Made by a program: the position numbers and the translations under genes. From NCBI GenBank assembly GCA_965243165.1, contig OZ251535.1:1281572-1345571 (forward strand): a stretch of DNA of 64,000 bases. Reading direction: 5' to 3'. Source of the DNA: Candidatus Spongiisociaceae bacterium. GTDB taxonomy: Bacteria; Actinomycetota; Acidimicrobiia; Spongiisociales; Spongiisociaceae. The notes under the pieces are model-generated. The model was not told where the DNA came from. It made no database searches and saw only the letters and a list, made by a program, of their open reading frames with translations. Positions 9,054 through 36,699 of this stretch are shown here, one piece after another; position 1 is the first letter of the stretch; every line of letters starts with the position of its first letter.

Positions 9054-9111
9054 GGCTGGGAGGTTGCCCGCGCCGGCGCGGCGGGCTTGTCTGGCGGCTT
9101 TTCGGTTGTGC

Positions 9112-9140
9112 TTGATTTTCTCGGGGGGGGGGGGTAGTAT
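9112..9140 (+). promoter_or_regulatory. Putative sigma70-type promoter of giant gene 1: TTGATT - 17 nt spacer ending in a 12-G homopolymer - TAGTAT
   Basis: -35 TTGATT 9112-9117; G12 at 9123-9134; -10 TAGTAT 9135-9140. The same architecture is conserved before all four paralogs. Confidence 0.55.
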
Positions 9141-9204
9141 TGTGGTTGTTGACCGTTGTCCCCTTGCTTCGGTGAGGGGTTGGCTTGATGGAGGAGGTGG
9201 CCTG

Positions 9205-12200
9205 ATGTTGTTGGGTTGGTCGTTGTTGCGGGGGGGGGGGGGCTGGTGTTGAGGCCGCGGCGTTGGTTGGGTTTGGGGTTGGCGGTTGCTTTGGTGTTGG
9301 GGGTGCTGCCGACTGCGCCGGTTGGGGTGGTGGGTCAGTCGTCTTTTTTGATTACGTTGTCGTTCGATGACGGGGAGAGCACGCCGTCGGCGTTGACGGG
9401 GGTGGCGGAGGAGGGCGGCGGTCAGACGGTGCGGGTGGTGGCGACGGCTTCGGCGGCGACGTCGTCGGCGGTGACGGTGAACGTGTCGGCGGCGGCGGGC
9501 ACGGCGACTGCGACGACGGATTATGCGATTTCGGCTTCGTCGTGGACGGTGACGATCGCCAGCGGGGATACGGTGGGGCATTCGGCGGCGTTGACGGTGA
9601 CACCGGTCAATGACACGCGGGTGGAGGGGGATGAGACGATTGTGTTTTCGGCGACTACGGCCGCGACGGGGTATTCGGCGATTGCTGATGTGAGTTTGAA
9701 TATCGAGGATGACGATGATGATATTGTGTTGTCTTTGGACAAGTCGGCGGTGTTGGAGTGGGCGGCGGATCAGACGGTTACGGTGACGGCGGAGTTCGAG
9801 GGGGCAACGGCGTCGGATTTGGGTTCGTCTTCGGATGTGGTGGTGTCTGTAGCGGGGGGCGCCGGGGCGGATGGAGCAACGCTGGGTGCGGAGGGTCCGC
9901 CGCCGTCGGGGGATTTTTGGACGGATCAGACGGGTGATTCGTTTACGGTGTCGATTGCGGCGGGGGCGGTGTCGGGTTCGGCCAGTTTCGATTTGCGGGC
10001 TCGGGCGGATGGGGTTGCGGAGGCTGGGGGGGAGAAGGTGGCGGTGTCGGGGGCGTTGTCGGGGTTTACGATAACAGATGCGGAGTTGACGATTCATGAT
10101 GCGGTGGTGACGCTAAGTTTTACTGATGCGGCGGATCAGCCTGTTACGGGGTTGGGGGAGGACGACGGAGCGCAGACGGTGCGGGTGGCGGCTTCGGTTC
10201 CGGCGGGGGCGCCTGCGGATGTGGATGTGTCGGTGTCGGTGGACGATGATAATTCGACTGCGGCGGAGGGGTCGGGCGGGGATTATACGACTACGGCGCC
10301 TGCTTCGACTTCGGTTGCGATCAGTTCGGGTGAGACGAGCGGGTCGTCGGGTGATTTGGTGTTTACGCCTTTGTCGGATCGGGTGTTCGAGGATCATGAG
10401 GTTATCAAGTTTACGGGTACAGCTGCGGGATATGAAGTTGAGGATGGTGATTTGCAGATCATCGACGCAGATCGTACGATTGCTTTTTATCCAGATGATG
10501 GTGGTACTATTAGGAACGGTTCGTTTTACATGCGTGAGGACGGCGATCCTACGTTTGGTATTCATCAATGTGGATGCAATCGTAACGGCCCGAGGCCTGG
10601 GTTCACTGTCCGGATAGACGGGGTTACATCTTCTACCTACAGTCAGAACTTGAGGATGCGTTTTGGTGGTATCACCGGGACGGCGAAATACGCTAGCTAT
10701 GATCCAGAGGGTCTAGGTGGAATAAATGATTTTTATTCTGAAGTGGACGTTGGAGGGGGCAAGTGGTTGGACTTGCCCGCGGGAAGTATTTACACGATTA
10801 GCTGGTTCGATACGGGCCAAAATTTTGATTCATGGAGGGATCATGTAGCGGAGCCGGATGAGATTGGTTATATTGGGGCTCGTCCGTCGGGTGTTTATAC
10901 TTTAGAGGGGTTTACGTTGGTCAATATTCCTTTGGTGATCATCGATGATGATGTTCAGTTCAATCCTTTGGATAGGGATGTTACGTCGGTGACGGAGGGT
11001 TCGACGACTGCGGCTGTCAATATCAGTGCGAGTATGAATGCTAATTCTTCTCAATTGACGTCTGATACGGAGCTGCCGTTGTCGGTGTTGAGGGAGGATG
11101 ATCCTGAGGTGGGGGTAGCGGGTGTTGATGATTTCTCTTACTCGGGGTTGACCGACGCGACGGTGGCGGCGGGGCAGATACAGACTGGGTCTTCTCCGGG
11201 GGTGTTGTCTGGATTGATGGTTGTGGATGATACGGTGGTGGAGGGCCCGGAGCTGGTGAAGATCATGAGCTCCCCGGCTTTGGCGGCGGCGAAGCCGAAT
11301 GGGGATGAAACTGATCAGGAAGTTACGTTCGACAGGCTGGAGACGCATGTGACGATCGAGGATGATGATGCTGATATTACGTTGTCGGTGTCGCCGGGGA
11401 CGGTGGCGGAGATGGCGGCCGGTCAGCCGGTGACGGTGGTGGCGGAGTTTGCGGGGTCGTCGTCGGTTTTGACTTCTGCTACGAGTGTGGCGGTGCAGAT
11501 AGCCGGGGGTACGGCAACGTTGACGACTGATTTCACTACGGGTCTGGCGAATGACCGGTTGACGGTTACGATCCCGGCGGGCCGGACGTCGGGGTCGAAG
11601 ACGTTTACGTTGACGGCGATCGACGACAGCACACAGGAGCCTAGCGGGGAGACAGTTACGTTCGAGGGGCATGGAACCACGCGGGTGCGCGGGGCAGATG
11701 TGACGGTTACAGGCGCGTCGTTGACGATCATGGATCCGGGTATGGAGGTGGTGTTGTCTTTGACGGACACCGGGGCTTCTCCGATGGAGTTGTCGGCGGT
11801 GGGGGAGGACGGCGGGGCGAAGACGGTGCGGGTGACGGCTACGGTGGGTACGGCCCTGTCGGGCAGTGATCTGGATGTGGCGGTTACGGTGGGCGCGTTG
11901 GGGAGTTCGGCGGATGAGGGGGATGATTACACGGTTGATGAGTCTTCGGTTACGGTGACCATCGCGGATGGGGCCACTTCTGGGTCGGCGGATGTGGTGG
12001 TTACGCCTGTTTCGGATATGGTTACGGAGGATCATGAGACGATCCTGTTCACGGGGGAAGCGGCGGGGTATGCGGTTGCGCCGGCTTCGTTGGCGGTTAC
12101 CGACGCCGACCGGGCGATTACGTTGGTGTACGGTGCTAACCGGGGGCATGAGGTGGCGTATCAGGAGCAGGCGGCTCTCAGTAATCCACAGTGGAGGTAT

Positions 12201-15200
12201 GTTACCGCCCGTGTGGAGGGTGTGTCTTCTACTTATTCCGGCAGTATCAGGGGGCGGGTCGAGACAGAGTCCGGTACGGCAACGGTGGTTTCTACCGGCT
12301 CGTCGACCAGCGGGGACCTCTACAATTGGCTTGAGCATGCTACTGATATGAGTGAGCACAGGTATGTTGATATCGGTGCGGGTAATACGGAGTCGACTGC
12401 TTGGTTCCGTTCGCGTGTCCGGGCGGATGACGCAGCGGAGCCGGTGGAGGATTTGTATGTTATGTTGTCGGGTTTGACTGATGGTTTCACGGTGGAGCGG
12501 GTGAAGGCGACGGTGGTGGATCGGGTGGATACGGCGGTGGTGTTGACGTTGGGGGGTACGGGGGGTACGGTGTCGGAGGGCGGGGACCTTTCGGGTCTGT
12601 CGGTTACGGCGGGGTTTCCGTCTGGTGTTACGTCGAATGCGTTGGGTTCTGATCTGGTGGTGACGTTGGGCGCTCCGGAGGCGGGTACGGCGGGGGCGGA
12701 TGATTTTTCGTGGACGCCGCCCGATCCTGCGGATACGTTGACGATTCCAACGACGGCGACGGTGAGTCCGGACGCGGATGCGGTGTCGCCTGCGGGGGTG
12801 TCGATCACCGATGATTCGGTGGTGGAGAACCCGGAGACGCTGCAGCTGACCGGCAGCTACACGCTGGACGGTGAAACCCGGGAAACGTCGGCGGAGTTGA
12901 CGATCGAGGACGACGACGCGAATGTGGTGTTGTCGGTGTCGCCGGGGACGGTGGCGGAGGGCAGCACGGAGGAGGTGCGGGTTACGGCCCGGTTCGCGGG
13001 GTCGGCTACGGAGTTGACGTCGGATACGACGGTTACGGTTACCATCGCGGCGGGTACCGCGGTGTTGACGACTGATTTCACTACGGACGCGACGGGCAGT
13101 CAGGTGTCGGTGGTGATCCCGGCCGGGTCTCTGTCGGGGTCGGCGACGTTCAACCTGACAGCGGAAACAGACAGCACCATGGAGGGGAACGAGACGGTTG
13201 CCTTGTCGGGGGCGGGGACGATCGGGTCGCAGACGTTGATGGTGACGGGCGCTGCGGTGAACATCGTCGATTCGGGGATCACGTTGGCGGTGGATGCGGA
13301 TACGGGTACGTCGGGTGATCAGTCGTCGGTGGGTGAGGAGGGGGGTACCAAGACGGTGGAGGTGGAGGTTACGTTGCCGGCGGCGTCTTCTTCGGGCAAC
13401 GGCGCTGTGACGGTTGGGTTGAATGTGGTGGGCGGCACGGCGGTGTTGGACGACAACTCGGACGGGGATTCGGAGTTCGGGGTGGGGGAGGACTTCCGGG
13501 TGACGTATCCGTCGGGGCAGACCAATGTTTCGGTTGAGGTTGCTGAGGGTGACACGACGGGGACGGCGACGTTCGATGTGGTGTTGAACAACGACAACGT
13601 TGCTGAGGGTTCTGCGGCGGAGACGGTGGTGATCGAAGGCGCGGCGGTCACCGTCAACAGTACGTCGTATGAGGTGGTGTCAACGAGTTTCGGGATCACC
13701 GACGACGACGCGTCGCCCACCACTATTGGTTTGACCTTGCTGGACGCAGACGGGGAGGACTTGACAGAGGTCCGGGAGGACGGCGGCACGGTGCGGGTGC
13801 GGGTGAAGGCCGCCTTGGCGGGGGACAAGGTGCTGCCCCGGTCGGTGACGGTTCCGCTCACGGTGGGCATGTCGGGCGGCGCCGCAGCGCCGCATGATTT
13901 CAAGTCGGTTTCGTCGTTGGCGGTGACGATTCCGCCTTATGAGGATGAAGGCACCGTCGAGTTTGATCTGGAGCTGATCGACGATACGAGGCCGGAGGGC
14001 GCCGAGGAATTGACGGTCCACGGCGGCACGCTGGGGGCTGCTCTGACCGGTTTGGGGTTCACGGCGGTGGAGTCCGATTCGTTGACCATCGTGGACAACG
14101 ACATCATCCTGGGTTTGTTGGACGCCGAGGGAGACCTGCTGACCAAGGTTCTGGAAGGAACCAGCCCCCAGGTGCGGGTGCAGGTGTCGTATTCGGGGAC
14201 TTCGACGTCGTCTTCTCCTCGGGTGGTGGAGATATCCGTTGAAGACGGCACCGCCGCGGCCGGGAGTGATTACACCGCTGTCCGGGTGGACCCGGTTCTC
14301 GTACCTCGGAACCGGAACAGCGACAGTTGGCCTATTCCGGGTTTGAGCTTGACCGACAACCGCGATTTCGATGGTGACAAGACGTTGCGGGTGTCCGCCT
14401 CGGCGGAGGGGTTCGACATCGCCCCGGTGGAGCTCATCATTCAGGACAACGAGATCCGGTTGTCGTTGAACCAGGCGTCGGTGCGGGAGGACGCAGGGCG
14501 GATCACCCGAAGGGTTACCGCCCGGGCTGGTTCCGCGCCGCCTGAAGACTTGGTGGTGAACATAACGGTCGGCGGGGGCCGTTCGTCGGGGAATGGTTAC
14601 ACCCGTTTGAGTCCGGCCCGGTTCTCGGTCACGATTCCCGCCGGGGAGACGTCGGGGTCCAGATCGTTCTCCATGACCGTGACCGACGACTCCACCCCCG
14701 GCAATTCCAAGACGTTGTCGGTTGCGGGTTCCGCTTCTGGGTTCTCGGTTGCGTCGGCTCGTTTGACCATCACCGACGACGGCGACACCGCCGCACCCCC
14801 GTCCCCGCCCCCATCAGGCGGCGGGGGCGGAGGCGGAGGGGGAGGTGGTGCTCCACCCCCATCAGGCGGCGGCGGAGGCGGGGGCGGTGGAGGCGGCGGT
14901 GCTCCGCCCCCGGCCGGTGGAGGCGCGCAGCCCCCGGCCCAGCCGCCTGCGCCGGTGTGCGTCGGCCGGTTCTGCGACGACGACGGCAACGTCCATCAGG
15001 ACAACATCGAACGCATCGCGGTGTGGAGGATCACCCTCGGCTGCGACGCCCAGGACGCCACCAAGTACTGCCCCGACGCGGAGATCACCCGCCGGCAGAT
15101 GTCCGCCTTTCTGCACCGGGCCGTCTCGCAGCGGTGGACCATCCAAGCCCCCGAAGGGATCGAGCTGTCCGACGTTGGCGCGGATGAGTGGTTCCGCCCC

Positions 15201-15548
15201 TTCGCGGAATGGGTCGTCTCCGTCGGAGCGTTCAGCGCCCCCAACGGCGTGTTCGACCCGGGCGGGGTGGTTACCCGGGCGGACATGGCGATCATGATGA
15301 TCGGCGCCTTCCCCCACCTCGACGCCGTCCCCACCGAAACCAGCCGGTTCGGCGACGTAGAGGGCCTCTCCCCCGAAGTCCTCGCCGCCCTCGAAGGCAT
15401 GTATCAGACAGGGGTAACCCGAGGGTGTTCCGCCGAGCCGCTGAACTACTGCCCTAGCCAGCCGGTTACCCGGGCGCAGATGGCATCCTTCTTCGTCCGG
15501 GCCGTCAACCTCGCCCCCGCCGACACCCAACCCACCGCCGGCACCTGA
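9205..15548 (+). CDS. Giant secreted Calx-beta-repeat surface protein with C-terminal triple SLH anchor, paralog 1. The ATG start at 9205 is out of frame with the main ORF (9216..15548) because of the 13-G tract at 9230-9242
   Basis: RBS GAGGAGG 7 nt before ATG 9205. Signal-peptide-like N-terminus. More than 15 repeats with the Calx-beta signature (…TDYAISASSWTVTIASGDTVG…VTPVNDTRVEGDETIVFS…). Gly/Pro linker. Three SLH-like motifs (F.DD.GNVHQDNIERIA.W…ITRRQMSAFLHRAV). From the ATG the frame terminates after 15 codons (MLLGWSLLRGGGGWC*); an in-frame GTG at 9246 directly follows the tract. Confidence 0.8.
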
Positions 15549-15565
15549 CCGCAGCTGCTTCTTTA

Positions 15566-15603
15566 TCCGGCTCGGCCTCCCCAGCCAACCCAGGAGGCCG
15601 GGA
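15566..15603 (+). terminator. GC-rich stem-loop immediately 3' of giant gene 1 (candidate intrinsic terminator; no clear U-tract)
   Basis: CCGGCTCGGCCTCC-CCAGCCAACCC-AGGAGGCCGGG inverted repeat about 20 nt after the stop; conserved after all four paralogs. Confidence 0.45.
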
Positions 15604-15771
15604 ACCTGCGCCGCTCGGCCCATGACCTCCCCTCCAATTCGTAGAGCCGCTTTGCTCTCGCTGGGCAACCCTGGTTTCACCCTCGGCGGTCCGCCCGGTA
15701 AAGGGCTGGGCGGGTTCTGGGCGGCTGCCCGCGCCGGCGCGGCGGCTTGTTTGGCGGCCCCTCGGTTATGC

Positions 15772-15800
15772 TTGACTATTGGGGGGGGGGGGGGTAGTAT
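15772..15800 (+). promoter_or_regulatory. Putative promoter of giant gene 2: TTGACT - ATT + 14 G (17 nt spacer) - TAGTAT
   Basis: -35 15772-15777; G14 at 15781-15794; -10 15795-15800. The palindrome CCCGCGCCGGCGCGG lies 30 bp upstream at 15728-15742. Confidence 0.55.
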
Positions 15801-15862
15801 TGTTGTTGTGATCGTTGTCCCCTCGCTCGGTGAGGGGCTGGCTTGATGGAGGAGGTGGCCTG

Positions 15863-18800
15863 ATGATGCGGGGTTGGTCGTTGCTGCGGGGGGGGGGGGG
15901 CCAGGTGTTGAGGCCGCGGCGTTGGTTGGGTTTGGCGTTGGCGGTTGGTTTGGTGTTGGGGGTGTTGCCGGTTGGTCCGCCGGGGGTGGTGGGTCAGTCG
16001 GCGACGATTACGTTGTCGTTCGATGACGGGCAGGGTACGCCGTCGGCGGTGACGGGGGTGGCGGAGGAGGGCGGCGGTCAGTCGGTGCGGGTGGTGGCGA
16101 CGGCTTCGGCGGCGACGTCGGCGGTGGTGGCGGTGAACGTGACGGCGGCGGCGGGCACGGCGACTGCTACTACGGATTATGCGATTTCGGCGGCGTCGTG
16201 GACGGTGACGATCGCGAGCGGGGCTACGGTGGGGCGGTCGGCGGCGTTGACGGTGACTCCGGTCGCCGATGCGTTGGTGGAGGGGGATGAGACGATTGTG
16301 TTTTCGGCGACTACGACCGCGACTGGTTATTCGGCGATTGCTGATGTGAGTTTGAATATCGAGGATGCTGATGTGATTACGTTGTCGTTCGATGACGGGC
16401 AGTCGACGCCGTCGGCGGTGACGGGGGTGTCGGAGGAGGGCGGCGGTCAGTCGGTGCGGGTGGTGGCGACGGCTTCGGCGGCGACGTCGGCGGCGGTGAC
16501 GGTGAATGTGACTGCGGCGGCGGGTACGGCGACTGCTACTACGGATTATGCGATTTCGGCGGCGTCGTGGACGGTGACGATCGCGAGCGGGGCTACGGTG
16601 GGGCGGTCGGCGGCGTTGACGGTGACTCCGGCCTCCGACATGTTGGTGGAGGGGGATGAGACGATTGTGTTTTCGGCGACTACGACGGCGACGGGTTACG
16701 CGGCGATCGGGAGTGTGAATTTGAGTATTGGGGATGATGACAATGTGATTACGTTGTCGTTCGATGACGGGCAGGGTACGCCGTCGGCGTTGACGGGGGT
16801 GCCGGAGGGGGGCGGCGGTCGGTCGGTGCGGGTGGTGGCGACGGCTTCGGCGGCGTCGGGGGTGGAGTTGACGGTGAATGTGTCGGCGGCGGCGGGCACG
16901 GCGGCGGATCCGGAGGATTATGGGATTTCGGCTTCGTCGACGTCGGTGACGATTGCTTCGGGGGATACGGTGGGGTATTCGGAGGTGTTGACGGTGACTC
17001 CGGTGGATGACTTGTCGGTGGAGGGGGATGAGACGATTGTGTTTTCGGGGTCTACGACCGTGCCGGGTCATGCGGCGATTGCTGATGTGAGTTTGAATAT
17101 CGTGGATGATGACAATGTGATTACGTTGTCGTTTGCGGATGCGGCGGGTCAGCCTGTTGATGGGTTGGGGGAGGACGGCGGGCGTCAGTCGGTGCGGTTG
17201 GTTGCTTCGGTTCCGGCGGGGGTGCTGGTGCCGGCGGATGTGGATGTGTCGGTGACGGTGGATGATGCTCCTGAGACGGCGACGCCGGGGGCGGGCGGGG
17301 ATTATACGGCTTCTGGGATTCCTGCTTCGTTGACGGTTTCTATCAGTTCGGGTGGAACGGTGAGCGGGTCGTCGGGCGATTTGGTGTTTACTGCTTTGTC
17401 TGATCGGGTGTTAGAGGATCATGAGATCGTGAGGAGGTTTACGGGTACGGCTTCGGGGTATACGGTCAAGGATGCTGATTTGTTGATTTTGGATGCGGAT
17501 CGTACTATTGTTGTTACTATGGATAATCTGAGACAACCTACGACCCATCATTTTTTTACTCGTGATGACGGTACTTTCGTTTTACGGGAGACTGGTGATC
17601 CTAGGAGCGGGCCGATATTTTGTTCTTGTCATGACGGCCCTCAGCCGTGGTTCACCGGCCGGGTGGATGGGGTTACTTCTTCTACCTACAGTCAGAACCT
17701 GACCATGTATTTCAAGCTTTTCAGCGGGACTGCTGAAGTTGTTAGCGGCGGTGAAATTCCCGGAACTGTGGATATCACTGGTTTAATTTTGGATGATTGG
17801 TTTCGTAGGTCCCGTACACACAACGTCCGGGCGACGTTGAATGCGGGCAACACTTTTTTCAGGTTTAGGCCGGGCGGTTCTCAGGCTGATTTTTTTAGCG
17901 GTTACAATTTTATCGCGGAGCCTGATGAGACTTTCACGATTGGATTTGCTAAAACCTGGAACGGCTTTGAACCGCCGGATGGGTTCGAGATTGTTCCGGT
18001 GCAGGGGGTGGTGATCGATGATGATGTACAGCTTGAGAGGTTTTGGGTGGATGTTACGTCGGTGGCGGAAGGTTCGCCGACGGATGTGAAAATTGGTACG
18101 GGTTTTAATGCTAGTTTGACTGATTATGGCAGTGTCCCGTCTGACCAGAACCGTGAGGGTCGGAACAATGCTCAACGTTCCGAGTTGACGTCTGATACGG
18201 TGGTGTCGTTGTCGGTGGTGGAGGGGCCGGGGTTGCTGAGCGCCGACGAGTATTCTGCCACTTGGACGAGGAGGTCGATAACTATTGCGGCGGGTGCTGC
18301 GGGTGACGGCGGTTGGGAGACAACGTTGACGAATCTGTCGGTTGCGGATGATGGTGTGGTGGAGGGTCTGGAGCGGCTGCGGATCGTGGGTACGGCGGCG
18401 TTGGCGGCGACCAAGTCTGATGGGTCGCCTACTGATCAGGTGGTTACTTTCAAGGACCTGTCAGCGAATATTATTACGGTGACGGATGCCAATGCTGATA
18501 TCACGTTGTCGGTGTCGCCGGGGACGGTGTCGGAGACGGCGGCCGGTCAGCCGGTGACGGTGTCGGCGGAGTTCGCGGGGTCGTCATCGGTTTTGACGTC
18601 TGATACGGATGTGGCGGTGCAGATAGCCGGGGGTACGGCAACGTTGACGTCTGATTTCACTACGGGTCTGGCGAATGATCGGTTGACGGTTACGATCCCG
18701 GCGGGGGAGACGAGGGGGTCGAAGTCGTTTACGTTGACGGCGATCGACGACAGCACACAGGAGCCTAGCGGGGAGACGGTTACGTTCGCGGGGCATGGGA

Positions 18801-22684: not shown

Positions 22685-22702
22685 CCGCAGCTGCTTCTTT
22701 AT

Positions 22703-22742
22703 CCGGCTCGGCCTCCCCAGCCAACCCAGGAGGCCGGGCCGG
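22703..22742 (+). terminator. Conserved GC-rich stem-loop 3' of giant gene 2
   Basis: CCGGCTCGGCCTCC-loop-GGAGGCCGGGCC. Confidence 0.45.
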
Positions 22743-22811
22743 AACCGCCCCTGGAGTCTGTGTAGCCCTGCCTGGCGGCTTCTTCGGTGTGCTTGACTAT
22801 TCGGGGGGGGG

Positions 22812-22842
22812 GGGGGTAGTATGTTGTTGTGATCGTTGTCCC
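22812..22842 (+). promoter_or_regulatory. Putative promoter of giant gene 3: TTGACT - ATTC + 15 G (19 nt spacer) - TAGTAT
   Basis: -35 22812-22817; G15 at 22822-22836; -10 22837-22842. The spacer is 2 nt longer than in the other three copies, and the upstream CCCGCGCCGGCGCGG palindrome is missing in this copy. Confidence 0.5.
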
Positions 22843-25800: not shown

Positions 25801-28800
25801 CAGGAGACGATCCGGTTCGCGGGAACGGCAACAGGGTATGTGGTTGCGCCGGTTTCGTTGGAGATCACCGACGCGGATCGGTCGATTATGTTGGAGCTGG
25901 GGTTCAATCCGCGGGATTATCCGTCGGTGCTGTTTCCGGAGTACTCGGGGGACGGCGGTGCTCAATGGAGGAGTGTTACCGCCCGCGTGGAGGGTGTGTC
26001 TTCTACTTATTCCGGCAATATCAGGGGGCGGGTCATAACAGAGTCCGGTACAGGTGCGGCGGGGGCGTCGGTGTCTTCTACGGGTCCTGGTTCGGGGGAT
26101 ATCTATAATTGGCTTACCCATTCGACCACGAGTCATCATAGGTATGTTGATATCGGTGCGGGTAATACGTCGTCGGGGCCTGCTTGGTTCACGTTGCATG
26201 TCCCGGCGGACGACGCAGCGGAGCAGACGGAGTATTTCGATTTTACGTTGACGGGTTTGACTGATGGTTTCACGGTAGTGCCGGTCAAGGGGGCGGTGGT
26301 GGATCTGGTGGACACGGCGGTGGTGTTGTCGCCGGGGGGTACGGTGACCGAAGGCGGGACGGGTTCGGGTCTGTCGGTTACGGCGGGGTTTCCGTCTGGG
26401 GTTACGTCGAGCACGATTGGTTCTGGCCTGGTGGTTACTTTGGGCGCTCCGGAGGCGGGTACGGCGGGGTCGGATGATTTTTTGTGGACGCCGCCTGATC
26501 CTGCGGATACGGTGACGATCGCGATGGGGCAGACGGAGAGTCCAGCCGGGGATGCGGTGGCGCTGGCGGGGTTGTCTATCACCGATGATTCGGTGGTGGA
26601 AGACCCGGAGACGCTGCAGCTGACCGGGTCTTACATGCTGGACGGCGAAACCCGGGAGGCGGAGGGGACGTTGACGGTGTTGGACAATGACACGGAGGTG
26701 GTGTTGTCGGTGTCGCCGGGAACGGTGGTGGAGGGCAGCACGGAGGAGGTGCGGGTTACGGCCCGCTTTGCGGGGTCGTCTTCGGTGTTGACGTCGGATA
26801 CGACGGTTACGGTTACCATCGCGGCGGGTACGGCGACGTTGACGACTGATTTCACTACGGACGCGACGGGCAGTCAGGTGTCGGTGGTGATCCCGGCGGG
26901 TTCTTTGTCGGGGTCGGCGACGTTCAATTTGATGGCGGTTACAGACTCAGTTACGGAGTCGGCGGGGGAGACGGTTGCCTTGTCGGGGGCGGGGACGATC
27001 GGGTCGCAGACGTTGATGGTGACGGGCGCTGCGGTGAACATCGTTGATTCGGGTATTACGTTGGCGGTGGATGCGGATACGGGTACGACGGGTGATCAGT
27101 CGTCGGTGGGTGAGGACGCGGTGACCAAGACGGTGGAGGTGGAGGTTACGTTGCCGGCGGCGTCTTCTTCGGGCAACGGCGCTGTGACGGTTGGGTTGAA
27201 TGTGGTGGGCGGCACGGCGGTGTTGGACGACAACTCGGACGGGGATTCGGAGTTCGGGGTGGGGGAGGACTTCCGGGTGACGTATCCGTCGGGGCAGACC
27301 AACGTCTCGGTTGAGGTTGCTGAGGGTGACACGACGGGGACGGCGACGTTCGAGGTGGTGTTGAACGACGACAACGTTGCTGAGGGTTCTGCGGCGGAGA
27401 CGGTGGTGATCGAAGGCGCGGCGGTCACCGTCAACACCACGTCGTATGAGGTGGTGTCAACCAGTTTCGGCATCACCGACTCCACCGACGACGCGTCGCC
27501 TACGACTATTGGTTTGACCCTGCTGGACGCAGACGGGGAGGACTTGACAGAGGTCCGGGAGGACGACGGTACGGTTCGGGTGCGGGTGAAGGCCGCCTTG
27601 GCGGGGGACAAGGTGCTGCCCCGGTCGGTGACGGTTCCGCTCACGGTGGGCATGTCGGGCGGCGCCTTAGCGGTGCATGATTTCAAGCGGGTTTCGTCGC
27701 TGGCGGTGACGATTCCGCCTCATGAGGATGAGGGAACCGTTGAGTTCGATCTGGAGCTGAACGACGATACGAGGCCGGAGGGCGCCGAGGAATTGACGGT
27801 CCACGCCGGCGCGCTGGGGGCTGCTCTGACCGGTTTGGGCTTCACGGCGGTGGAGTCCGATTCGTTGACCATCGTAGACAACGACATCATCCTGGGTTTG
27901 TTGGACGCCGACGGGGACCCGCTGACCAAGGTTCTGGAGGGCAGCAACCCCCAGGTGCAGGTGCAGCTGTCGTATCCAGGAATACACTGGTCGTCCCCTC
28001 GGTGGGTGCAGGTAACCGTGGGGGGCGGAACCGCCTCTGGAAGCGACTTCCGCATCGCGTCGGCCCCCGGCGCCGTGTTCTTTCCGATCCGTGTGAACAG
28101 CGCAACCAAGGCGTTCGGGTTGAACGCGGTCAACGACCGCGCGTTCGAGGGCGACGAAACGCTGCGGGTGTCCGCCGCGGCGGAGGGGTTCGACATCGCT
28201 CCGGTGGAGCTCGTCATTCAGGACAACGAGATCCGGTTGTCGTTGAACCAGGCGTCGGTGCGGGAGGACGCAGGCCGGATCACCCGGACGGTTACCGCTA
28301 CGGCGAGTTCCGCACCCCCCGAGGATCTGGTGGTGAATGTTAGGGTCGCGGGGAGCGGTTACACCAGCCTGAGTCCGAGGTCGTTCTCGATCACTATTCC
28401 CGCCGGGGAGACGTCGGGGTCCAGATCGTTCTCCATGACCGTGACCGACGACTCCACCCCGGGCAATTCCAAGTCGGTGTCGGTTACGGGTTCCGCGTCG
28501 GGGTTCGACGTTTCGTCGGCTCGTTTGACCATCACCGACGACGGCGACGTCGCTGCCCCCCCGCCCCCATCCGGCGGCGGCGGCGGGGGAGGGGGCGGTG
28601 GTGCTCCGCCCCCATCAGGCGGCGGCGGGGGAGGCGGAGGAGGTGGCGGCGGCGGCGCTCCACCCCCAGCCGGCGGAGGAGGGGGAGGCGGTGGTGGCGC
28701 CCCGCCCCCGGCCGGTGGAGGCGCGCAGCCCCCGGCCCAGCCGCCCGCGCCGGTGTGCGTGGGCCGGTTCTGCGACGACGACGGCAACGTCCACCAGGAC

Positions 28801-29346
28801 AACATCGAGCGCATCGCGGTGTGGCGGATCACTCTCGGCTGTGACGCCCAGGACGCCACCAAGTACTGCCCCAATGCGGAGATCACCCGCCGGCAGATGT
28901 CCGCCTTCTTGCACCGGGCCGTCTCGCAGCGGTGGACCATCGAAGCCCCCGAAGGAATCGTGCTCACCGACGTCGGCGCGGATGAGTGGTTCCGCCCCTT
29001 CGCGGAGTGGGTCGTCTCCGTGGGAGCGTTCAGCGCCCCCGGCGGGGTGTTCGACCCGGGCGGGGTGGTTACCCGGGCGGATATGGCGATCATGATGATC
29101 GGCGCGTTCCCCCACCTCGACGCCGTCCCCACCGAAGCGAGCCGGTTCGGCGACGTAGAGGGCCTCTCCCCCGAAGTGTTGGCCGCCCTCGAGGGCATGT
29201 ATCAGACGGGCGTAACCCGTGGATGCTCCGCCGAGCCGCTGAATTACTGCCCTGCCCAGCCGGTTACCCGGGCGCAGATGGCGTCGTTCTTCGTCCGGGC
29301 CGTCAACCTCGCCCCCGCCGACACCCAACCCGCCGCCGGTACCTGA
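22884..29346 (+). CDS. Giant Calx-beta-repeat/SLH surface protein, paralog 3. The ATG start at 22884 is out of frame with the main ORF (22927..29346) across the 15-G tract at 22909-22923
   Basis: Same RBS/ATGATG leader as copy 2. From the ATG the reading runs into ORF 22836..23048 (…RGGGGAGVESAALVGFGVGG…). The main ORF has two N-terminal Calx-beta units, the copy-2-type middle module, Gly/Pro linker and three SLH motifs. An in-frame GTG at 22927 directly follows the tract. Confidence 0.8.
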
Positions 29347-29365
29347 CCGCAGCTGCTTCTTTATC

Positions 29366-29404
29366 CGGCCCGGCCTCCCCAGCCAACCCAGGAGGCCGGG
29401 CCGG
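29366..29404 (+). terminator. Conserved GC-rich stem-loop 3' of giant gene 3
   Basis: CCGGCCCGGCCTCC-CCAGCCAACCC-AGGAGGCCGGGCCGG. Confidence 0.45.
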
Positions 29405-29527
29405 AACCGCCCCCCGGGGGAACCTGCGCAGTCCGGTCCAGGGCCTCCCCCCTCCAATGCTTAGAGGGGGGTCTGGGAGGCTGCCCGCGCCGGCGCGGCG
29501 GCTTGTTTGGCGGCCCCTCGGTTGTGC

Positions 29528-29556
29528 TTGACTATTCGGGGGGGGGGGGGTAGTAT
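29528..29556 (+). promoter_or_regulatory. Putative promoter of giant gene 4: TTGACT - ATTC + 13 G (17 nt spacer) - TAGTAT
   Basis: -35 29528-29533; G13 at 29538-29550; -10 29551-29556. Upstream palindrome CCCGCGCCGGCGCGG at 29483-29497. Confidence 0.55.
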
Positions 29557-29616: not shown

Positions 29617-32600
29617 ATGCTGGGTTGGTCGTTGCTGCGGGGGGGGGGGGCAGGTGTTGAGTCGGCGGCGTTGGTTGGGTTTGGGGTTGGCGGTTGGTTT
29701 GGTGTTGGGGGTGCTGCCGGTTGGTCCGCCGGGGGTGGTGGGTCAGTCGGCGACGATTACGTTGTCGTTCGACGACGGGGAGAGTACGCCGTCGGCGTTG
29801 ACGGGGGTGGCGGAGGAGGGCGGCGGTCAGTCGGTGCGGGTGGTGGCGACGGCTTCGGCGGCTACGTCGGCGGCGGTTACGGTGAATGTGTCGATCGCGG
29901 CGGGTACGGCGACCGCGGCGACGGATTATGCGGTTTCGGCGGCGTCGGCGACGGTGACGATCGCCAACGGGGATACGGTGGGGTATTCGGCGGCGTTGAC
30001 GGTGACGCCGGTGGATGATGCGTTGGTGGAGGGGGATGAGACGATTGTGTTTTCGGCGACTACGTCGGCGACGGGTTATTCGGCGATTGCTGATGTGAGT
30101 TTGAACATCGAGGATGCTGATGTGATTACGTTGTCGTTCGATGACGGGGCGGGCACGCCGTCGGCGGTGACGGGGGTGTCGGAGGAGGGCGGCGGTCAGT
30201 CGGTGCGGGTGGTGGCGACGGCTTCGGCGGCGACGTCGGCGGCGGTTACGGTGTCGGTGTCGATCGCGGCGGGTACGGCGACTGCGACGACGGATTATGC
30301 GGTTTCGGCTTCGTCGACGACGGTGACGATCGCCAACGGGGATACGGTGGGGCAGTCGTCGGCGTTGACGGTGACTCCGGCCTCCGACGCGTTGGTGGAG
30401 GGGGATGAGACGATTGTGTTTTCGGGGTCTACGACGGCGACGGGTTATGCGGCGATTGCTGATGTGAGTTTGATTATTGGGGATGATGACAATGTGATTA
30501 CGTTGTCGTTCGATGACGGGGAGAGTACGCCGTCGGCTGTGACGGGGGTGTCGGAGGGGGGCGGCGGTCGGTCGGTGCGGGTGGTGGCGACGGCTTCGGC
30601 GGCGTCGTCGGCGGCGGTGACGGTGGATGTGTCGGCGGCGGCGGGTACGGCGACTGCGGCGACGGATTATGCGGTTTCGGCTTCGTCGGCGTCGGTGACG
30701 ATCGCGGCGGGGGATACGGTGGGTTATTCGGAGGTGTTGATGGTGACGCCGGTGGATGACTTGTTGGTGGAGGGGGATGAGACGATTGTGTTTTCGGGGT
30801 CTACGACCGTGCCGGGTCATGCGGCGATTGCTGATGTGAGTTTGGTTATTGGGGATGATGACAATGTGATTACGTTGTCGTTTGTGGATGAGGCGGGTGA
30901 GCCTGTTGGGGGGTTGGGGGAGGACGACGGGGCGCAGGCGGTGCGGTTGGTTGCTTCGGTTCCGGCGGGGGTGCAGGTGCCGGCGGATGTGGATGTGTCG
31001 GTGACGGTGGATGATGCTCCTGAGACGGCGACGCCGGGGGCGGGCGGGGATTATACGGCTTCTGGGATTCCTGCTTCGCTGACGCTTTCTATCGCTTCGG
31101 GTGGGACAGTGAGCGGGTCTTCGGGTGATTTGGTGTTTACTGCTTTGTCGGATCGGGTGTTCGAGGATCACGAGATCGTGAGGAGGTTTACGGGTACGGC
31201 TTCGGGGTATACGGTCGAGGACGCTGATTTGCTGATCATGGACGCCGATCGTACGATTGTTTTTCATGTAGATGATGATCGTGGTAATATTATTAGGAGC
31301 GGGTCGTTGTACATGCGTGAGCGGGGCGATCCGGTTGGCACTAATGAATGTGACTGCAATCGGGTGGGCCCGAGGCCTGGGTTCACTGTCCGGATAGACG
31401 GGGTTACGTCTTCTACTTACAGTCAGAACTTGAGGATGCGTTTTGGCGGTATCAGCGGGACGGCGAAATACCCGTTCTATAATCCAGAGGGTCTGGGTGG
31501 ATTTAATGATTTTTATTCCCTAGCAGACGAAAGCGGGAGGAGCAGGTGGTTGGAGTTGCCTGCGGGAAGTATTTACGCAATTAGCTGGTTCAATTCGGGC
31601 GAGAACTTTGATTCATGGAAGGATCATGTAGCGGAGCCGGATGAGATTGGTTACCTTGGGGCTCGTCCGTCGGGTGTTCATACTTTGGAGGGGTTTACGT
31701 TGGTCAATATTCCTTTGGTGATCATCGATGATGATGTTCAGTTCAATCCTTTGGGGAGGAGTGTTACGTCGGTGACGGAGGGTTCAACGACGGCGGCTGT
31801 CAATATCAGTGCGCGTATGCATGCTAATTCTTCTCAATTGACGTCTGATACGGAGCTGTCGCTGTCGGTGTTGAGGGAAGATGATCCTGAGGTAGGGGTA
31901 GCGGGTGTTGATGATTTCTCTTACTCGGGTTTGACTGACGGGACTGTGGCGGCGGGGCAGATACACACTGGATCTTCTCCGGGGGTGTTGTCTGGACTGG
32001 CGGTTGTGGATGATACGGTGGTGGAGGGCCCGGAGCAGGTGAAGATCATGAGCTCCCCGGCTTTGGCGGCGGCGAAGCCGAATGGGGATGAAACTGATCA
32101 GGAGGTTACCTTCGACAGGCTGGAGACGCACGTAACGATTGAGGATGATGATGCTGATATCAGTTTGTTGGTGTCGCCGGGGTCGGTGGTGGAGAAGGCA
32201 GGCGGTCAGACGGTGACGGTGGTGGCGGAGTTCGCGGGGTCGTCGTCGGTTTTGACGTCTGATACGGATGTGGAGGTGCAGATAGCCGGGGGTACGGCAA
32301 CGTTGACGACTGATTTCACGGTTTCGGGTTTGGATGCCAACGATCGGTTGACGGTTACGATCCCGGCGGGCCGGACGTCGGGGTCGAAGACGTTTACGCT
32401 GACGGCGCTCGTCGACAGCGTGACGGAGTCCAGCGGGGAGACGGTTACGTTCGAGGGGCATGGAACCACGCGGGTGCGCGGGGCAGCCGTGACGGTTACG
32501 GGCGCCTCGCTGACGATCATGGATCCGGGTATGGAGGTGGTGTTGTCTTTGACGGACACGGGGATTTCTCCGGAGGCGTTGTCGGCGGTGGATGAGGACG

Positions 32601-35600
32601 GCGGAGCGAAGACGGTGCGGGTGACGGCTGCGGCGGGGGCGGCTGTGACGGGGAGTCAGACAATAACGGTTACGGTGGGCGCGGCGGGGAGTACAGCGGA
32701 TGAGGGGGATGATTATACGGTTGATGCGTCTTCGGTTACGGTGACCATCGCGGATGGGGCTATGTCGGGGACGGCGGATGTGGTGATTACGCCTGTTTCG
32801 GATACGGTTACGGAGGATGATGAGACGATCCGTTTCACGGGGGAATTGGCGAGTTATGTGGTTGCGCCGGTTTCGTTGGGAATCACCGACGCCGACCGGA
32901 CTATCACGTTGGAGTTCGCTGTTACGGCGCCGCATCCGTTGGAGTTTCGGGAGGGGCGTTATAGTGATGAGTGGAGGAAGGTTACCGCCCGTGTGGAGGG
33001 TGTGTCTTCTACTTATTCCGGCAGTATCAGGGGGCGGGTCAGGCCAGAGGCCGGTACGGCAACGGTGGTTTCCACCGGCCCGTCGACCAGCGGGGATCTC
33101 TACAATTCACTCGAGCATGCTACTGACACGAGTGAGCACAAGTATGTCGATATCGGTGCGGGTAATACGTCGGCGGGTGTTTGGTTCGTTTCGCGTGTCC
33201 TGGCGGATGACGCGGCGGAGCCGGTGGAGGATTTGTACTATACGTTGTCGGATTTGACTGATGGTTTTACGGTGGAGCGGGTGAGGGCGACATTGGTGGA
33301 TCGGTTGGACACGGCGGTGGTGTTGACGCTGGGGGGTACGGGGGCTGCGGTGTCGGAGGACGGGGACCTTTCGGGTCTGTCGGTCACGGCCGGTTTTCCG
33401 TCTGGTGTTACTTCGAGCACGATTGGTTCTGATCTGGTGGTGACGTTGGACGCTCCGGAGGCGGGTACGGCGGGGGCGGATGATTTTTCGTGGACGCCGC
33501 CCGGGACTGCCGACACTTTGACGATCGAGGCGGGGCAGACGGCGAGTCCGGCGGTGTCGCCGGCGGGGGTGTCGATCACCGATGATTCGGTGGTGGAGAA
33601 CCCGGAGACGCTGCAGCTGACCGGCAGCTACACGCTGGACGGCGAAACCCGGAAGACGGAGGCGACGTTGACTATCGAGGACGACGACGCGAATGTGGTG
33701 TTGTCGGTGTCGCCGGGGACGGTGGTGGAGGGCGACACGGAGGAGGTGCGGGTTACCGCCCGGTTCGCGGGGTCGGCTACAGAGTTGACGTCGGATACGA
33801 CGGTTACGGTTACCATCGCGGCGGGTACGGCGACGTTGACGACTGATTTCACTACGGACGCGACGGGCAATCAGGTGTCGGTGGTGATCCCGGCCGGGTC
33901 TCTGTCGGGCTCCGCGACGTTCAACCTGACAGCGGAAACAGACAGCACCATGGAGGGGAAGGAGACGGTCACCTTGTCGGGGGCGGGGACGATCGGGTCG
34001 CAGACGTTGAGGGTTACGGGCGCTGCGGTGAACATCGTCGATTCGGGTATTACGTTGGCGGTGGATGCGGATGCGGATACGACGAATAATCAATCGTCGG
34101 TGGGGGAGGAGGGGGGCACCAAGATGGTGGAGGTTACGGTTACGTTGCCGACGGCGCCTTCGGGGAGCGCCGAGGTGGTGGGGTTGAATGTGGTGGGCGG
34201 CACGGCGGTGTTGGACGGGGATTCGGAGTTCGGGGTGGGGGAGGACTTCCGGGTGACGTATCCGTCGCCGCAGTCACCGCCGCCGCCGACGGGTCATAGT
34301 TTGGCGGTTGAGGTTGCTGATGGTGCTACGACGGGGTCGGCGACGTTTACGGTGGTGTTGAACGACGACGATGTTGCTGAGGGTTCTGCGGCGGAGACGG
34401 TGGTGATCGAAGGCGCCGCTGTCACCTACGGCGGTGGTACGTATGAGGTGGTGTCGACCAGTTTTGGGATCACCGACGACGACGCGTCGCCCACCACTAT
34501 TGGTTTGTCCTTGCTGGACAGCGGCGGGGAGGACTTGACGGAGGCCGGCGAAGGCGGCGGTACGGTTCGGGTGCGGGTGAAGGCCGCCTTGGCGGGGGAC
34601 AAGGTGCTGCCCCGGTCGGTGACGGTTCCGCTGGTGGTGGGTCAGTCGGGCGGAGCCGCGGCGGGGACGGATTTCAAGTCGGTCTCGTCGCTGGCGGTGA
34701 CGATTCCGCCTCATGAGGATGAGGGAACCGTTGAGTTCGATCTGGAGCTGATAGACGATACGAGGTTGGAGGGCACCGAGGAATTGACGATCCACGGCGG
34801 CACTCTGGGGGTTGCTCTGACCGATTTGGGGTTCACCGCGGTCGAGTCCGATTCGTTGACCATCGTGGACAACGACATCATCCTGGGTTTGTTGGACGCT
34901 GACGGGGACCCGCTGACCAAGGTTCTGGAAGGCACCAGCCCCCAGGTGCGGGTGCAGGTGTCGTATTCAGGGACTTCTACGTCATCCTCTCCTCGGGTGG
35001 TGGAGATATCCGTTGAAGACGGCACCGCCGCGGCCGGGAGTGATTACACCGTTGCCCGGGTGGACCCGGTTCTCGTACCTCGGAACCGGAACAGCGACAG
35101 TTGGCCTATTCCGGGTTTGAGCTTGACCGACAACCGCGATTTTGATGGTGACAAGACGTTGCGGGTGTCCGCCTCGGCGGAGGGGTTCGACATCGCCCCG
35201 GTGGAGCTCATCATTCAGGACAACGAGATCCGGTTGTCGTTGAACCAGGCGTCGGTGCGGGAGGACGCAGGGCGGATCACCCGCACGGTCACCGCCCAGG
35301 CGGGTTCCGCACCCCCCGAGGACCTGGTTGTCAACATTGTGGTCGGTGGGGGCCGTTCGTCGGGGAATGGTTACACCCGTTTGAGTCCGGCCCGGTTCTC
35401 GGTCACGATCCCCGCCGGGGAGACGTCGGGATCCAGATCGTTCTCCATGACCGTGACCGACGACTCCACCCCCGGCAATTCCAAGACGGTGGCGGTTACG
35501 GGCTCCGCGTCGGGGTTCGACATTTCGGCGGCTCGTTTGACCATCACCGACGACGGCGACACCGCCGCACCCCCGTCCCCGCCCCCATCAGGCGGCGGCG

Positions 35601-36361
35601 GCGGAGGAGGCGGCGGCGGTGCTCCACCCCCATCAGGCGGAGGCGGCGGGGGCGGCGGTGCTCCACCCCCGGCCGGAGGCGGCGGAGGCGGCGGCGGAGG
35701 AGGGGGCGGTGGTGCTCCGCCCCCGGCCGGAGGAGGCGCCCAGCCCCCGGCCCAGCCGCCCGCACCGGCCTGCGTCGGCCGGTTCTGCGACGACGACGGC
35801 AACGTCCACCAAGACAACATCGAACGCATCGCCGTGTGGCAGATCACCCTCGGTTGCGACGCCCAAGACGCCACCAAATACTGCCCCGACGCCCAGATCA
35901 CCCGCAGGCAGATGTCCGCCTTCCTGCATCGGGCCGTTTCCCAACGGTGGACCATCCAAGCCCCCGAAGGGATCGAACTCACCGACGTCGAAGCCGACGA
36001 ATGGTTCCGCCCCTTCGCGGAATGGGTCGTCTCCGTCGGAGCCTTCAGCGCCCCCGAGGGCGTGTTCAACCCCGGCGGGGTGGTCACCCGGGCGGATATG
36101 GCGATCATGATGATCGGCGCGTTCCCCCACCTCGACGCCGTCCCCACCGAAGCGAGCCGGTTCGGCGACGTCGAGGGCCTCTCCCCCGAAGTGTTGGCCG
36201 CCCTCGAAGGGATGTACCAGACGGGCGTTACCCGAGGATGTTCCGCCGAACCCCTCAACTACTGCCCTGCCCAGCCGGTTACCCGGGCGCAGATGGCGTC
36301 GTTCTTCGTCCGAGCCGTCAACCTCGCCCCCGCCGACACCCAACCCACCGCCGGCACCTGA
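29617..36361 (+). CDS. Giant Calx-beta-repeat/SLH surface protein, paralog 4. The ATG start at 29617 is out of frame with the main ORF (29654..36361) across the 12-G tract at 29639-29650
   Basis: RBS GGAGGAGGTGG then ATG 29617. The ATG frame continues as ORF 29617..30018. The main ORF has three N-terminal Calx-beta units, the copy-1-type middle module (HVDDDRGNIIRSGSLYMRERGDP…), Gly/Pro linker and three SLH motifs. An in-frame GTG at 29654 follows the tract. Confidence 0.8.
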
Positions 36362-36379
36362 CCGCAGCTGCTTCTTTAT

Positions 36380-36418
36380 CCGGCCCGGCCTCCCCAGCCA
36401 ACCCAGGAGGCCGGGCCG
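36380..36418 (+). terminator. Conserved GC-rich stem-loop 3' of giant gene 4
   Basis: CCGGCCCGGCCTCC-loop-GGAGGCCGGGCCGG. Confidence 0.45.
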
Positions 36419-36699
36419 GAACCGCCCCCCGGACCTGCGCAACCCGGTCCCAGCCCCCCGGATCGAGGCGGCCGGGTCAGAAGCCTCCGGTGAAGCGGCG
36501 GGTGTGGATGTAGAGGCCGATAACGGGCAGATGAAATGCACGCCTGCATCCCTTCTGACCTGGGGTGATCACAATGAGATACTGTCTGATCAGAACTTGA
36601 GGTTCACCTGCCGGGTGAACGCCGCCGCTTCGGGGGTCTGGGATGTACAGGCCGGTGAACAGGCGCGGCCAGCGGCCCGCCCCGCGTGGATATGAATAA

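Follow-up and report, generated by a model that had tools for sequence, protein, structure and literature searches.

The tandem gene array

The stretch of DNA analysed here, referred to as the window, comprises 64,000 nt of contig OZ251535.1 from Candidatus Spongiisociaceae bacterium (positions 1,281,572 to 1,345,571 of the forward strand), and the subject is an array of four very large genes for predicted surface proteins, designated copies A to D, each carrying two poly-G tracts. In the open reading frame (ORF) list of the window, A to D appear as four head-to-tail ORFs on the plus strand, each of 6.3-6.9 kb, whose translations are clearly paralogous (2110-2289 codons, pairwise DNA identity 81-87%), in agreement with a first-pass annotation, made from the letters alone, that had described four such genes encoding proteins of ~2100-2300 aa. 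Each N-terminus looks like a signal peptide, and the mature proteins (210-225 kDa, pI about 4.05) contain little Cys and are rich in Thr, Ala, Val and Gly. Their sequence features predict that A to D are paralogues transcribed independently of one another, each having its own promoter, leader, Shine-Dalgarno sequence (SD), ATG, signal peptide, Calx-beta rod, Gly/Pro linker, C-terminal S-layer homology (SLH) anchor and post-stop hairpin. The long ORFs are as follows.

9216-15548, plus strand: copy A, 2110 codons maximal, in a frame that includes the GTG at 9246
15815-22684, plus strand: copy B, 2289 codons maximal, 2273 from the ATG at 15863
22927-29346, plus strand: copy C, 2139 codons, from the GTG at 22927
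29654-36361, plus strand: copy D, 2235 codons, from the GTG at 29654

Poly-G tracts in the predicted promoters and 5' coding regions

Homopolymers of at least 9 nt number ten in the window, every one poly-G on the plus strand, and eight of the ten occupy the same two positions in each of A to D. The G12 pattern occurred 19 times, against 0.89 expected from shuffles. A poly-G tract in each conserved module, which the first-pass annotation did not mention, is the most informative feature of the array. The promoter scan returned TTGACT-17-TAGTAT with the tract as spacer, with a consensus over the copies of TTGAYT-17/18-TAGTAT, and the upstream modules of A to D are 83-88% identical between copies. 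The predicted promoters are located as follows.

9112-9140, plus strand: promoter A, TTGATT, 17-nt spacer of TTCTC and G12 (9123-9134), TAGTAT
15772-15800, plus strand: promoter B, TTGACT, 17-nt spacer of ATT and G14 (15781-15794), TAGTAT
22793-22822, plus strand: promoter C, TTGACT, 18-nt spacer of ATTC and G14 (22803-22816), TAGTAT
29528-29556, plus strand: promoter D, TTGACT, 17-nt spacer of ATTC and G13 (29538-29550), TAGTAT

Each promoter is followed by a leader of 60-64 nt that ends in GGAGGAGGTGG, with the ATG 7-8 nt further on, and a strong SD (GGAGGAGG) precedes this upstream ATG by 7-8 nt in all four copies. The second tract begins seven or eight codons past the ATG and encodes the Gly run in MMRGWSLLRGGGG.

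Gene 9205-15548, plus strand: copy A, ATG at 9205, G13 at 9230-9242, ATG frame stopping after 15 codons
Gene 15863-22684, plus strand: copy B, ATG at 15863, G13 at 15888-15900, in frame for 2273 codons
Gene 22884-29346, plus strand: copy C, ATG at 22884, G15 at 22909-22923, ATG frame stopping after 54 codons
Gene 29617-36361, plus strand: copy D, ATG at 29617, G12 at 29639-29650, ATG frame stopping after 133 codons

Reading from the SD-preceded ATG passes through the tract in frame only in B. In A, C and D a change of one base in tract length would restore the frame, and apart from this their long ORFs run without interruption over 2110-2235 codons. The states predicted from the assembled consensus are promoter-17/frame-OFF for A, promoter-17/frame-ON for B, promoter-18/frame-OFF for C and promoter-17/frame-OFF for D, leaving B as the sole copy predicted to be ON at both switches.

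Poly-G cassettes in related genomes

Loci of relatives were oriented with the anchor gene on the plus strand, and runs of at least 9 nt on the gene strand (not de-duplicated) comprised 77 G-runs and 5 C-runs. Three Spongiisociaceae genomes yielded 47 unique promoter-type tracts of the form TTGAYN, 3-5 nt (AATT, AATC and similar), G(n), and TAGCGT, TAGCAT or TAGTAT; 24 of these are G11, 19 are G12, and G14, G15, G18 and G19 occur once each, distributed as follows.

OZ241842: nine G11, two G12
OZ251578: nine G11, 13 G12, one each of G14, G15, G18 and G19
OZ241841: six G11, four G12

For every evaluable promoter tract (42 of 42), an SLH anchor is encoded on the same strand 1.8-8.4 kb downstream and before the next promoter. 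One promoter cassette is common to 10-26 genes per genome, and near-identical paralogous promoters carry differing tracts (e.g. G15 and G18; G11-G19 overall). Tandem arrays of three or more units of promoter tract and SLH gene were found in relatives at L007/L012, L029, L033, L035, L047 and L049. When five of the tract-linked genes of relatives were scanned, SLH was detected in all five, and the Calx-beta cutoff was reached in one.

Among relatives, 12 signal-peptide coding regions contain a second tract. In OZ241842 this tract is positioned downstream of the hydrophobic core, where a later start would leave no exportable product; six of ten genes analysed there have it in frame, and the other four are out by 1 nt. 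L006, L008, L018 and L020 are off by 1 nt yet have more than 1000 open codons, and one leader of OZ241842 carries G11 in L016 (in frame), G10 in L020 and G12 in L006 (both out of frame).

In strain-level comparisons, the tract differed in three of three cases. L194 and L195 come from two samples of one project, and their proteins cluster together at 90% identity; at each of the two orthologous promoters they differ by a single G (G10 and G11; G11 and G12), with flanks 93-94% identical. L072 and L073 are from two genomes of one sample; the 5-nt change between them falls entirely within the tract, and the flanks are 97% identical. A single-copy orthologue between fmt and rsmB (L001, OZ251578; 9910-9940) has the promoter TTGACAAAAAT-GGGAGGGGGAGGG-TAGCTT, in which the G tract is interrupted and the spacer is 18 nt, and its orthologues in L194 and L195, from two other samples, have pure G10 and G11 tracts; judged by sequence, L001 apparently carries a stabilised, 'locked' version of the poly-G cassette. 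A metagenome scan with TTGAYWWWTYG10 returned 120 matches, none of them from this family: the pattern was too generic and picked up unrelated, mostly low-GC organisms as well as what look like poly-G read artefacts.

Calx-beta repeat units and Gly/Pro linker

An internal hidden Markov model (HMM), seeded on the N-terminal repeats and iterated, found 13-14 Calx-beta-like units of ~110 aa in each of the four proteins, and one or two further divergent units were readable by eye from the pattern GTA...D[YF]...AEPDETF (e.g. B residues 555-780), giving about 14-16 in total; the earlier count of 'more than 15' is therefore roughly right. With Pfam Calx-beta (PF03160; cutoff 27 bits), whole proteins B and D scored 47.1 and 50.6 bits, above the cutoff, and A and C scored 19.7 and 21.6 bits, below it. 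Among single units, 7 of 27 matched this family at E<=0.01 (best 9.6e-6), and a profile built from all 27 reached the NCX1 Calx-beta domains of the PDB with E=1.9e-5. For unit 1, an AlphaFold model (predicted local distance difference test, pLDDT, 89.7) was searched against the PDB using Foldseek, and the top 12 matches were all CBD1 or CBD2 of NCX1/CALX (template modelling (TM) score 0.45-0.61, E 3e-3 to 9e-3, probability 1.0), with the Calx-beta domain of integrin beta4 ranked lower and no cadherin match above the top 12. On these profile and model comparisons, Calx-beta is the best assignment of the repeat units, in preference to cadherin-like or DUF11 domains. An Asp is nearly invariant across the units (D88), and D..E-GDE and terminal DDD motifs recur.

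The N-terminal unit is encoded by a tandem repeat of 369-378 nt, with one copy in A, two in C and three each in B and D. The (G)n-APPP linker is encoded by repeats of 39-54 nt whose number and length are specific to each copy, as the first-pass annotation had noted for a poly-Gly/Pro segment.

16006-17133, plus strand: three tandem 369-nt repeats encoding N-terminal units of B
23027-23774, plus strand: two N-terminal tandem repeats of C
29755-30882, plus strand: three N-terminal tandem repeats of D
14808-14911, plus strand: Gly/Pro linker repeats of A
21932-22059, plus strand: Gly/Pro linker repeats of B (39-nt unit)
28561-28737, plus strand: Gly/Pro linker repeats of C
35579-35738, plus strand: Gly/Pro linker repeats of D

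C-terminal SLH module

Each protein ends in a conserved stretch of about 197 aa made up of three SLH repeats.

14955-15545, plus strand: triple SLH anchor of A
22091-22681, plus strand: triple SLH anchor of B
28753-29343, plus strand: triple SLH anchor of C
35768-36358, plus strand: triple SLH anchor of D

In the full-length proteins the Pfam SLH score (PF00395) was marginal, 18.8-22.4 bits, and the isolated 197-aa C-terminus scored 32 bits against a cutoff of 20.8, with 24 of 25 homologous anchors also matching. By Pfam, the domain assignments of the first-pass annotation were recovered for SLH with the isolated anchor, and for Calx-beta in B and D, with A and C below the cutoff. A phmmer search of the PDB matched the module to the SLH domains of B. 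anthracis Sap at E=5.6e-11. The anchor structure was modelled with AlphaFold from an alignment of database proteins, producing six helices arranged as three pairs (pLDDT 79.5, predicted TM score 0.81), and the top 15 Foldseek matches in the PDB were all SLH trimers (Sap, SpaA; TM 0.55-0.74, probability 1.0), which bears out the triple SLH assignment. The TRAE-type motifs of the repeats read ITRRQ, VTRAD and VTRAQ, and their Arg is invariant (R46, R108, R173) across a 25-sequence anchor alignment. In all 25 aligned Acidimicrobiia anchors, SLH1 and SLH3 contain invariant Cys pairs of the form G-C-x6-9-[YF]-C-P (GC...YCP), and a further CxGRFC is conserved at the start of the module; this pattern suggests disulfide-stabilised loops. 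To our knowledge, Cys pairs of this kind are not a feature of classical Firmicute SLH domains. No csaB-like gene was seen within the window.

A genome scan with the anchor found copies 55-76% identical in circular metagenome-assembled genomes (MAGs) whose label is Candidatus Spongiisociaceae or uncultured Acidimicrobiia. Each related genome has at least 15 to 25 or more, in dispersed genes, and other Acidimicrobiia MAGs have weaker copies of 30-38% identity. From these matches, the organism is probably a sponge-associated acidimicrobial symbiont. Two features that the first-pass annotation had called unusual are largely expected, since both have been published: C-terminal SLH modules are well known in cellulosome-anchoring scaffoldins (PMC4045903), and eukaryotic-like proteins with Calx-beta, LRR (leucine-rich repeat), fn3 and cadherin domains have already been reported as enriched in sponge-associated Acidimicrobiia (PMC11706023).

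Duplication, gene conversion and further paralogues

In DNA comparisons of A to D, the most similar pair of copies changes along the gene. A and B are 97-100% identical over A 12476-13270, A and C 96-98% over A 13273-13640, A and D 92-98% over A 10784-11300 and 14037-14437, and B and C 98% near B 21558; over A 10433-11300 there are two divergent 'alleles', an A/D type and a B/C type, with about 50% identity. The longest identical runs between copies are 432, 197, 179, 145, 140 and 86 nt, and mismatch shuffles gave a largest run of 57-91 nt depending on the pair. Because identical runs exceed the shuffle maxima and the best pair shifts along the gene, the copies are gene-conversion mosaics. The A-B intergenic region (15649-15865) repeats, at 83% identity, the sequence upstream of A (9000-9207), the last ~55 nt of the B3/4-domain gene (8331-9053) included, which indicates that a unit beginning inside that gene was duplicated in tandem to build the array.

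Among database protein matches, P0001 is identical to B, and A, C and D themselves were absent. Three further paralogues, P0002, P0003 and P0004 (2252, 2134 and 2155 aa), are distinct from A, C and D and are mosaics of A-D-like segments plus novel ones. The annotated start of all three is an internal GTG within the signal peptide (MLGVLPVGPP...), as would be expected with upstream frames that are likewise broken, and they illustrate that such genes are likely to be annotated with short N-termini or as pseudogenes.

Proposed mechanism

We consider it probable that A to D belong to a family of poly-G contingency loci through which a symbiont varies its surface stochastically and combinatorially. 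Switching is inferred because such tracts behave in this way in Bifidobacterium, porA and tp0126: G10-G11 tracts slip at high frequency, as measured experimentally, in the actinobacterium Bifidobacterium breve (PMC9187656), and poly-G between the -35 and -10 elements controls N. meningitidis porA and T. pallidum tp0126, a spacer of 17 nt being optimal (PMC7864442). Slippage at the promoter tract would alter the distance between -35 and -10 and so tune transcription from a sigma-70-type promoter, and slippage at the coding tract would shift the reading frame and turn translation ON or OFF, such that cells would express random, differing subsets of A to D and of other family members. The product would be exported by the Sec pathway as an acidic rod of 14-16 Calx-beta domains; the triple SLH module would bind a secondary wall polymer non-covalently, a ligand proposed from domain biology, and the Gly/Pro segment would span the wall. 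With the SLH anchor at the C-terminus and attached through a Gly/Pro spacer, the variable N-terminal end would project outward. The Calx-beta domains, with their acidic motifs, may form a rod stiffened by Ca2+, with a length on the order of 60 nm (assuming ~4 nm per Ig-like domain), and segmental gene conversion, together with gain and loss of N-terminal and linker repeats, would diversify the proteins further.

Several points weigh against this proposal. The tract lengths are taken from one consensus assembly, and individual ON/OFF calls may be wrong; homopolymer length is error-prone in long-read assemblies, for which long runs are the weakest point. Most related promoters carry G11 or G12, corresponding to spacers of 15-16 nt, from which the ON length is not deducible, and the narrow length distribution could reflect a selected fixed length. 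The L194/L195 alignments hold a few other single-base indels outside the tracts, and the tract differences between these loci are therefore suggestive rather than exclusive. The window coding tracts lie upstream of the hydrophobic core, unlike those of OZ241842, and a GTG is present 3-4 nt past each of them (9246, 15905, 22927, 29654), from which a complete signal peptide is possible (MLRPRRWLGL...); the coding G-run could serve as a Shine-Dalgarno-like sequence for this GTG, in which case the frame relative to the upstream ATG might be irrelevant. At the RNA level, slippage during transcription of the G-run could likewise weaken the distinction between ON and OFF.

Alternative explanations

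If the GTG after the coding tract is the real start, and the G-run a ribosome-binding or leader element, all four copies would be translatable and switching would be confined to the promoter. The GTG is in the long-ORF frame in all four copies and opens a normal signal peptide (MLRPRRWLGLGLAV...VVGQ|S), and the upstream ATG frame of copy A ends after 15 codons overlapping the GTG, an arrangement compatible with translational coupling. This is nevertheless somewhat unlikely: the strong SD (GGAGGAGG) is retained before the upstream ATG in four of four copies, the ATG frame of B continues directly into the protein, and in OZ241842, where the tract follows the hydrophobic core, genes 1 nt off coexist with in-frame ones.

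It was also considered that A to D constitute the lattice-forming S-layer itself, as alternative variants of the kind encoded by the Campylobacter fetus sap genes, for which the triple SLH anchor, the very acidic, Thr/Ala/Val/Gly-rich and Cys-poor composition, and the several variant copies could all be cited. We regard this as unlikely, given that beads-on-a-string arrays of 14-16 domains with a long flexible linker are typical of fibrillar adhesins and are not known from lattice-forming S-layer proteins, and that the same anchor is found on many passengers, an LRR protein included, which makes SLH a general anchor here. A model of one expression site supplied by promoterless silent cassettes (vlsE, pilE-pilS or C. 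fetus sap type) was rejected, all four copies being full length with their own promoter, SD and start codon; gene conversion between them is evident, without an expression-site architecture.

Stable tracts of fixed length, such as a regulator site or a G-rich structure inherited with the duplicated cassette, or tracts that are assembly artefacts, would require no phase variation at all, and the differences in frame would be consensus errors at homopolymers. The tight clustering at G11-G12 in relatives fits the former, as does the L001 orthologue, which works with the interrupted tract GGGAGGGGGAGGG, and the general difficulty of homopolymers in long-read assemblies fits the latter. However, more than 50 loci from several independent assemblies have the tract in the same place, which means that the tracts as such are not artefacts; near-identical promoters differ as G15 and G18, with G11, G12, G14 and G19 also present; all three strain-level comparisons differ at the tract, two short-read-style assemblies included; and G10-11 is experimentally unstable in another actinobacterium (PMC9187656). 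This explanation is accordingly judged quite improbable. That A, C and D are decaying pseudogenes from a recent tandem duplication, as their broken frames from the SD-preceded ATG might indicate, is highly improbable and was rejected in its simple form, the ORFs being intact over 6.3-6.7 kb apart from the tract, with every frame defect mapping to a homopolymer one base from in-frame and the same pattern recurring in OZ241842.

Comparison with known systems

In the Vlp system of Mycoplasma hyorhinis, tandem paralogous surface genes each have a promoter with a homopolymer in the spacer, are switched ON and OFF combinatorially, and expand by in-frame repeats; the Vlp tract is poly-A and the products are small lipoproteins of a wall-less cell, whereas the array described here encodes wall-anchored Calx-beta proteins of ~220 kDa (as predicted). 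N. meningitidis porA and T. pallidum tp0126/tpr likewise have a G tract between -35 and -10 of a surface-protein gene, its length setting the spacer, and in T. pallidum tpr a whole paralogous family carries such tracts, like A to D (PMC7864442). Compared with porA and tp0126, the tracts here are longer (G11-G19), a second tract is present in the 5' coding region, 10-26 genes share a cassette, and the organism is a high-GC actinobacterial symbiont rather than a pathogen. The sortase-dependent pilus of B. breve belongs to an actinobacterium that is a host-associated commensal, and an intragenic G10-G11 near the start of its gene decides whether translation continues, as proposed here; in that system the one tract is inside the gene and the promoter has none, anchoring is by sortase/LPXTG, and one or two loci occur per genome (PMC9187656).

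For the anchor, B. anthracis Sap, P. alvei SpaA and C. thermocellum SdbA/OlpB (3PYW, 6BT4, 6CWC; PMC4045903) similarly combine three SLH repeats in one module with TRAE-like motifs, and the C-terminal placement in A to D matches that of scaffoldins (PMC4045903); identity to Firmicute SLH domains is only 15-20%, and the conserved Cys pairs and the acidimicrobial host set the present module apart. Sponge aggregation factors and other multi-Calx-beta proteins are secreted, contain 2-15 Calx-beta domains, and act in Ca2+-dependent adhesion and allorecognition (PMC5400394, PMC11670116). The Calx-beta arrays of A to D are similar in length to those of sponge aggregation factors, a resemblance of domain type without evidence of common descent; by the definition of that family (PMC5400394), A to D are not members of it, as no Wreath, VWA or VWD domain was found in them and Pfam finds only Calx-beta and SLH.

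Surroundings of the array

The genes flanking the array encode an FGGY kinase, a DeoC aldolase, ABC (ATP-binding cassette) transporter components, a B3/4-domain protein, an oligopeptide-transporter ATPase and a ceramidase-like protein. These are ordinary metabolic and transport functions, so the locus is not a dedicated cell-envelope island; together with the anchor's occurrence in at least 15 to 25 or more dispersed genes per related genome, this speaks against the dedicated S-layer or adhesin locus that the first-pass annotation had envisaged. The convergent LRR-SLH neighbour that it had reported is present.

37653-39647, minus strand: LRR-SLH gene, encoding a signal peptide, an LRR array and a triple SLH anchor 36% identical to that of B
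15574-15599, plus strand: short 8-bp hairpin after the stop of A
22702-22743, plus strand: 15-bp G+C hairpin after the stop of B, without a U tail
29364-29405, plus strand: 15-bp G+C hairpin after the stop of C
36379-36420, plus strand: 15-bp G+C hairpin after the stop of D

Of the conserved promoter, leader and terminator modules earlier proposed around each copy, the first two stand at 83-88% identity, and the last does not: a canonical intrinsic terminator after A to D was rejected, the post-stop hairpins having no U tail. A conserved, unusually stable structure in the 5' untranslated region of A to D was likewise rejected (z-scores -0.8 to +0.7). No RNA gene was found in the window by Rfam at the gathering threshold or by tRNA scan.

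G+C content falls from ~0.70 in the flanks to 0.56-0.63 inside the A-D genes, where the GC skew is about +0.3. At third codon positions of A to D (9246-36361), G accounts for 0.50-0.52, T for 0.22, C for 0.21-0.23 and A for 0.04, compared with C at 0.45-0.53 and T at 0.02-0.04 in flanking genes, and G+C at third positions (GC3) is 0.73 against 0.89-0.95. The dip and the skew therefore arise because synonymous sites are strongly strand-asymmetric, for which transcription-associated C-to-T change, foreign origin, or selection for C-poor mRNA may be responsible. The LRR-SLH gene is biased otherwise (GC3 0.65, A 0.22).

Repeats of ~300 nt flank the LRR-SLH gene at 36731-37590 and 39697-40260 (79-97% identity), with two tandem copies downstream of the gene and about 1.5 upstream, and have no Rfam match. 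The upstream repeat holds a G12 run at 39849-39860, and a fragment with the same TTTTTCGCGTTCT core adjoins a G11 run in a related genome (locus L004, position ~1671); these repeats may represent mobile or regulatory elements that form an intergenic family. A G11 tract at 40296-40306 lies 35 nt upstream of ORF 40341-40808 (155 aa, without a Pfam match), and is not of the TTGACA...TAG promoter type. ORF 42046-43446 (minus strand) matches the neutral/alkaline ceramidase N-terminal domain (PF04734, 60.8 bits), a sphingolipid-related enzyme in a putative animal symbiont. Window positions 60001-64000 have a G+C content of 0.50-0.52, against about 0.70 elsewhere, and are possibly foreign DNA; they contain an ORF for an NMT1/THI5-like binding protein (60179-62299) and small ORFs without Pfam matches.

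Biological implications

The new elements are the setting, an uncultured Acidimicrobiia sponge mutualist, the giant Calx-beta rods and other eukaryotic-like passengers, their SLH anchoring, the dual tract per gene and the scale of the cassette family; in the limited literature that could be searched, no report of phase variation, contingency loci or SLH anchoring in sponge symbionts was found, which is absence of evidence only. As to role, the proteins might, speculatively, provide variable adhesion or camouflage in the sponge mesohyl, directed at host cells or matrix and possibly exploiting the host's own Calx-beta-based aggregation factors (PMC5400394), or an escape from phages for which the protein is a receptor. 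A bolder version, which we hold to be doubtful, is that a mutualist runs pathogen-style variation, with dozens of SLH-anchored eukaryotic-like proteins behind poly-G promoter cassettes, a second poly-G frame switch in some of them and a random subset on display in every cell, and with rods that would imitate host Calx-beta aggregation factors, letting the symbiont dock to, or escape, the control exerted by allorecognition, adhesion and phagocytosis. If this mimicry were real, symbiont-host recognition in the oldest animal lineage would be stochastic and bet-hedged.

How sponge symbionts escape digestion by a bacteria-feeding host is a long-standing question, for which eukaryotic-like repeat proteins are the usual suspects. 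For the display and regulation of such proteins, the locus suggests anchoring to the wall through SLH modules, stochastic poly-G switching and recombination. If this is true, contingency loci, viewed mainly as a strategy of pathogens, would also shape mutualistic symbiosis.

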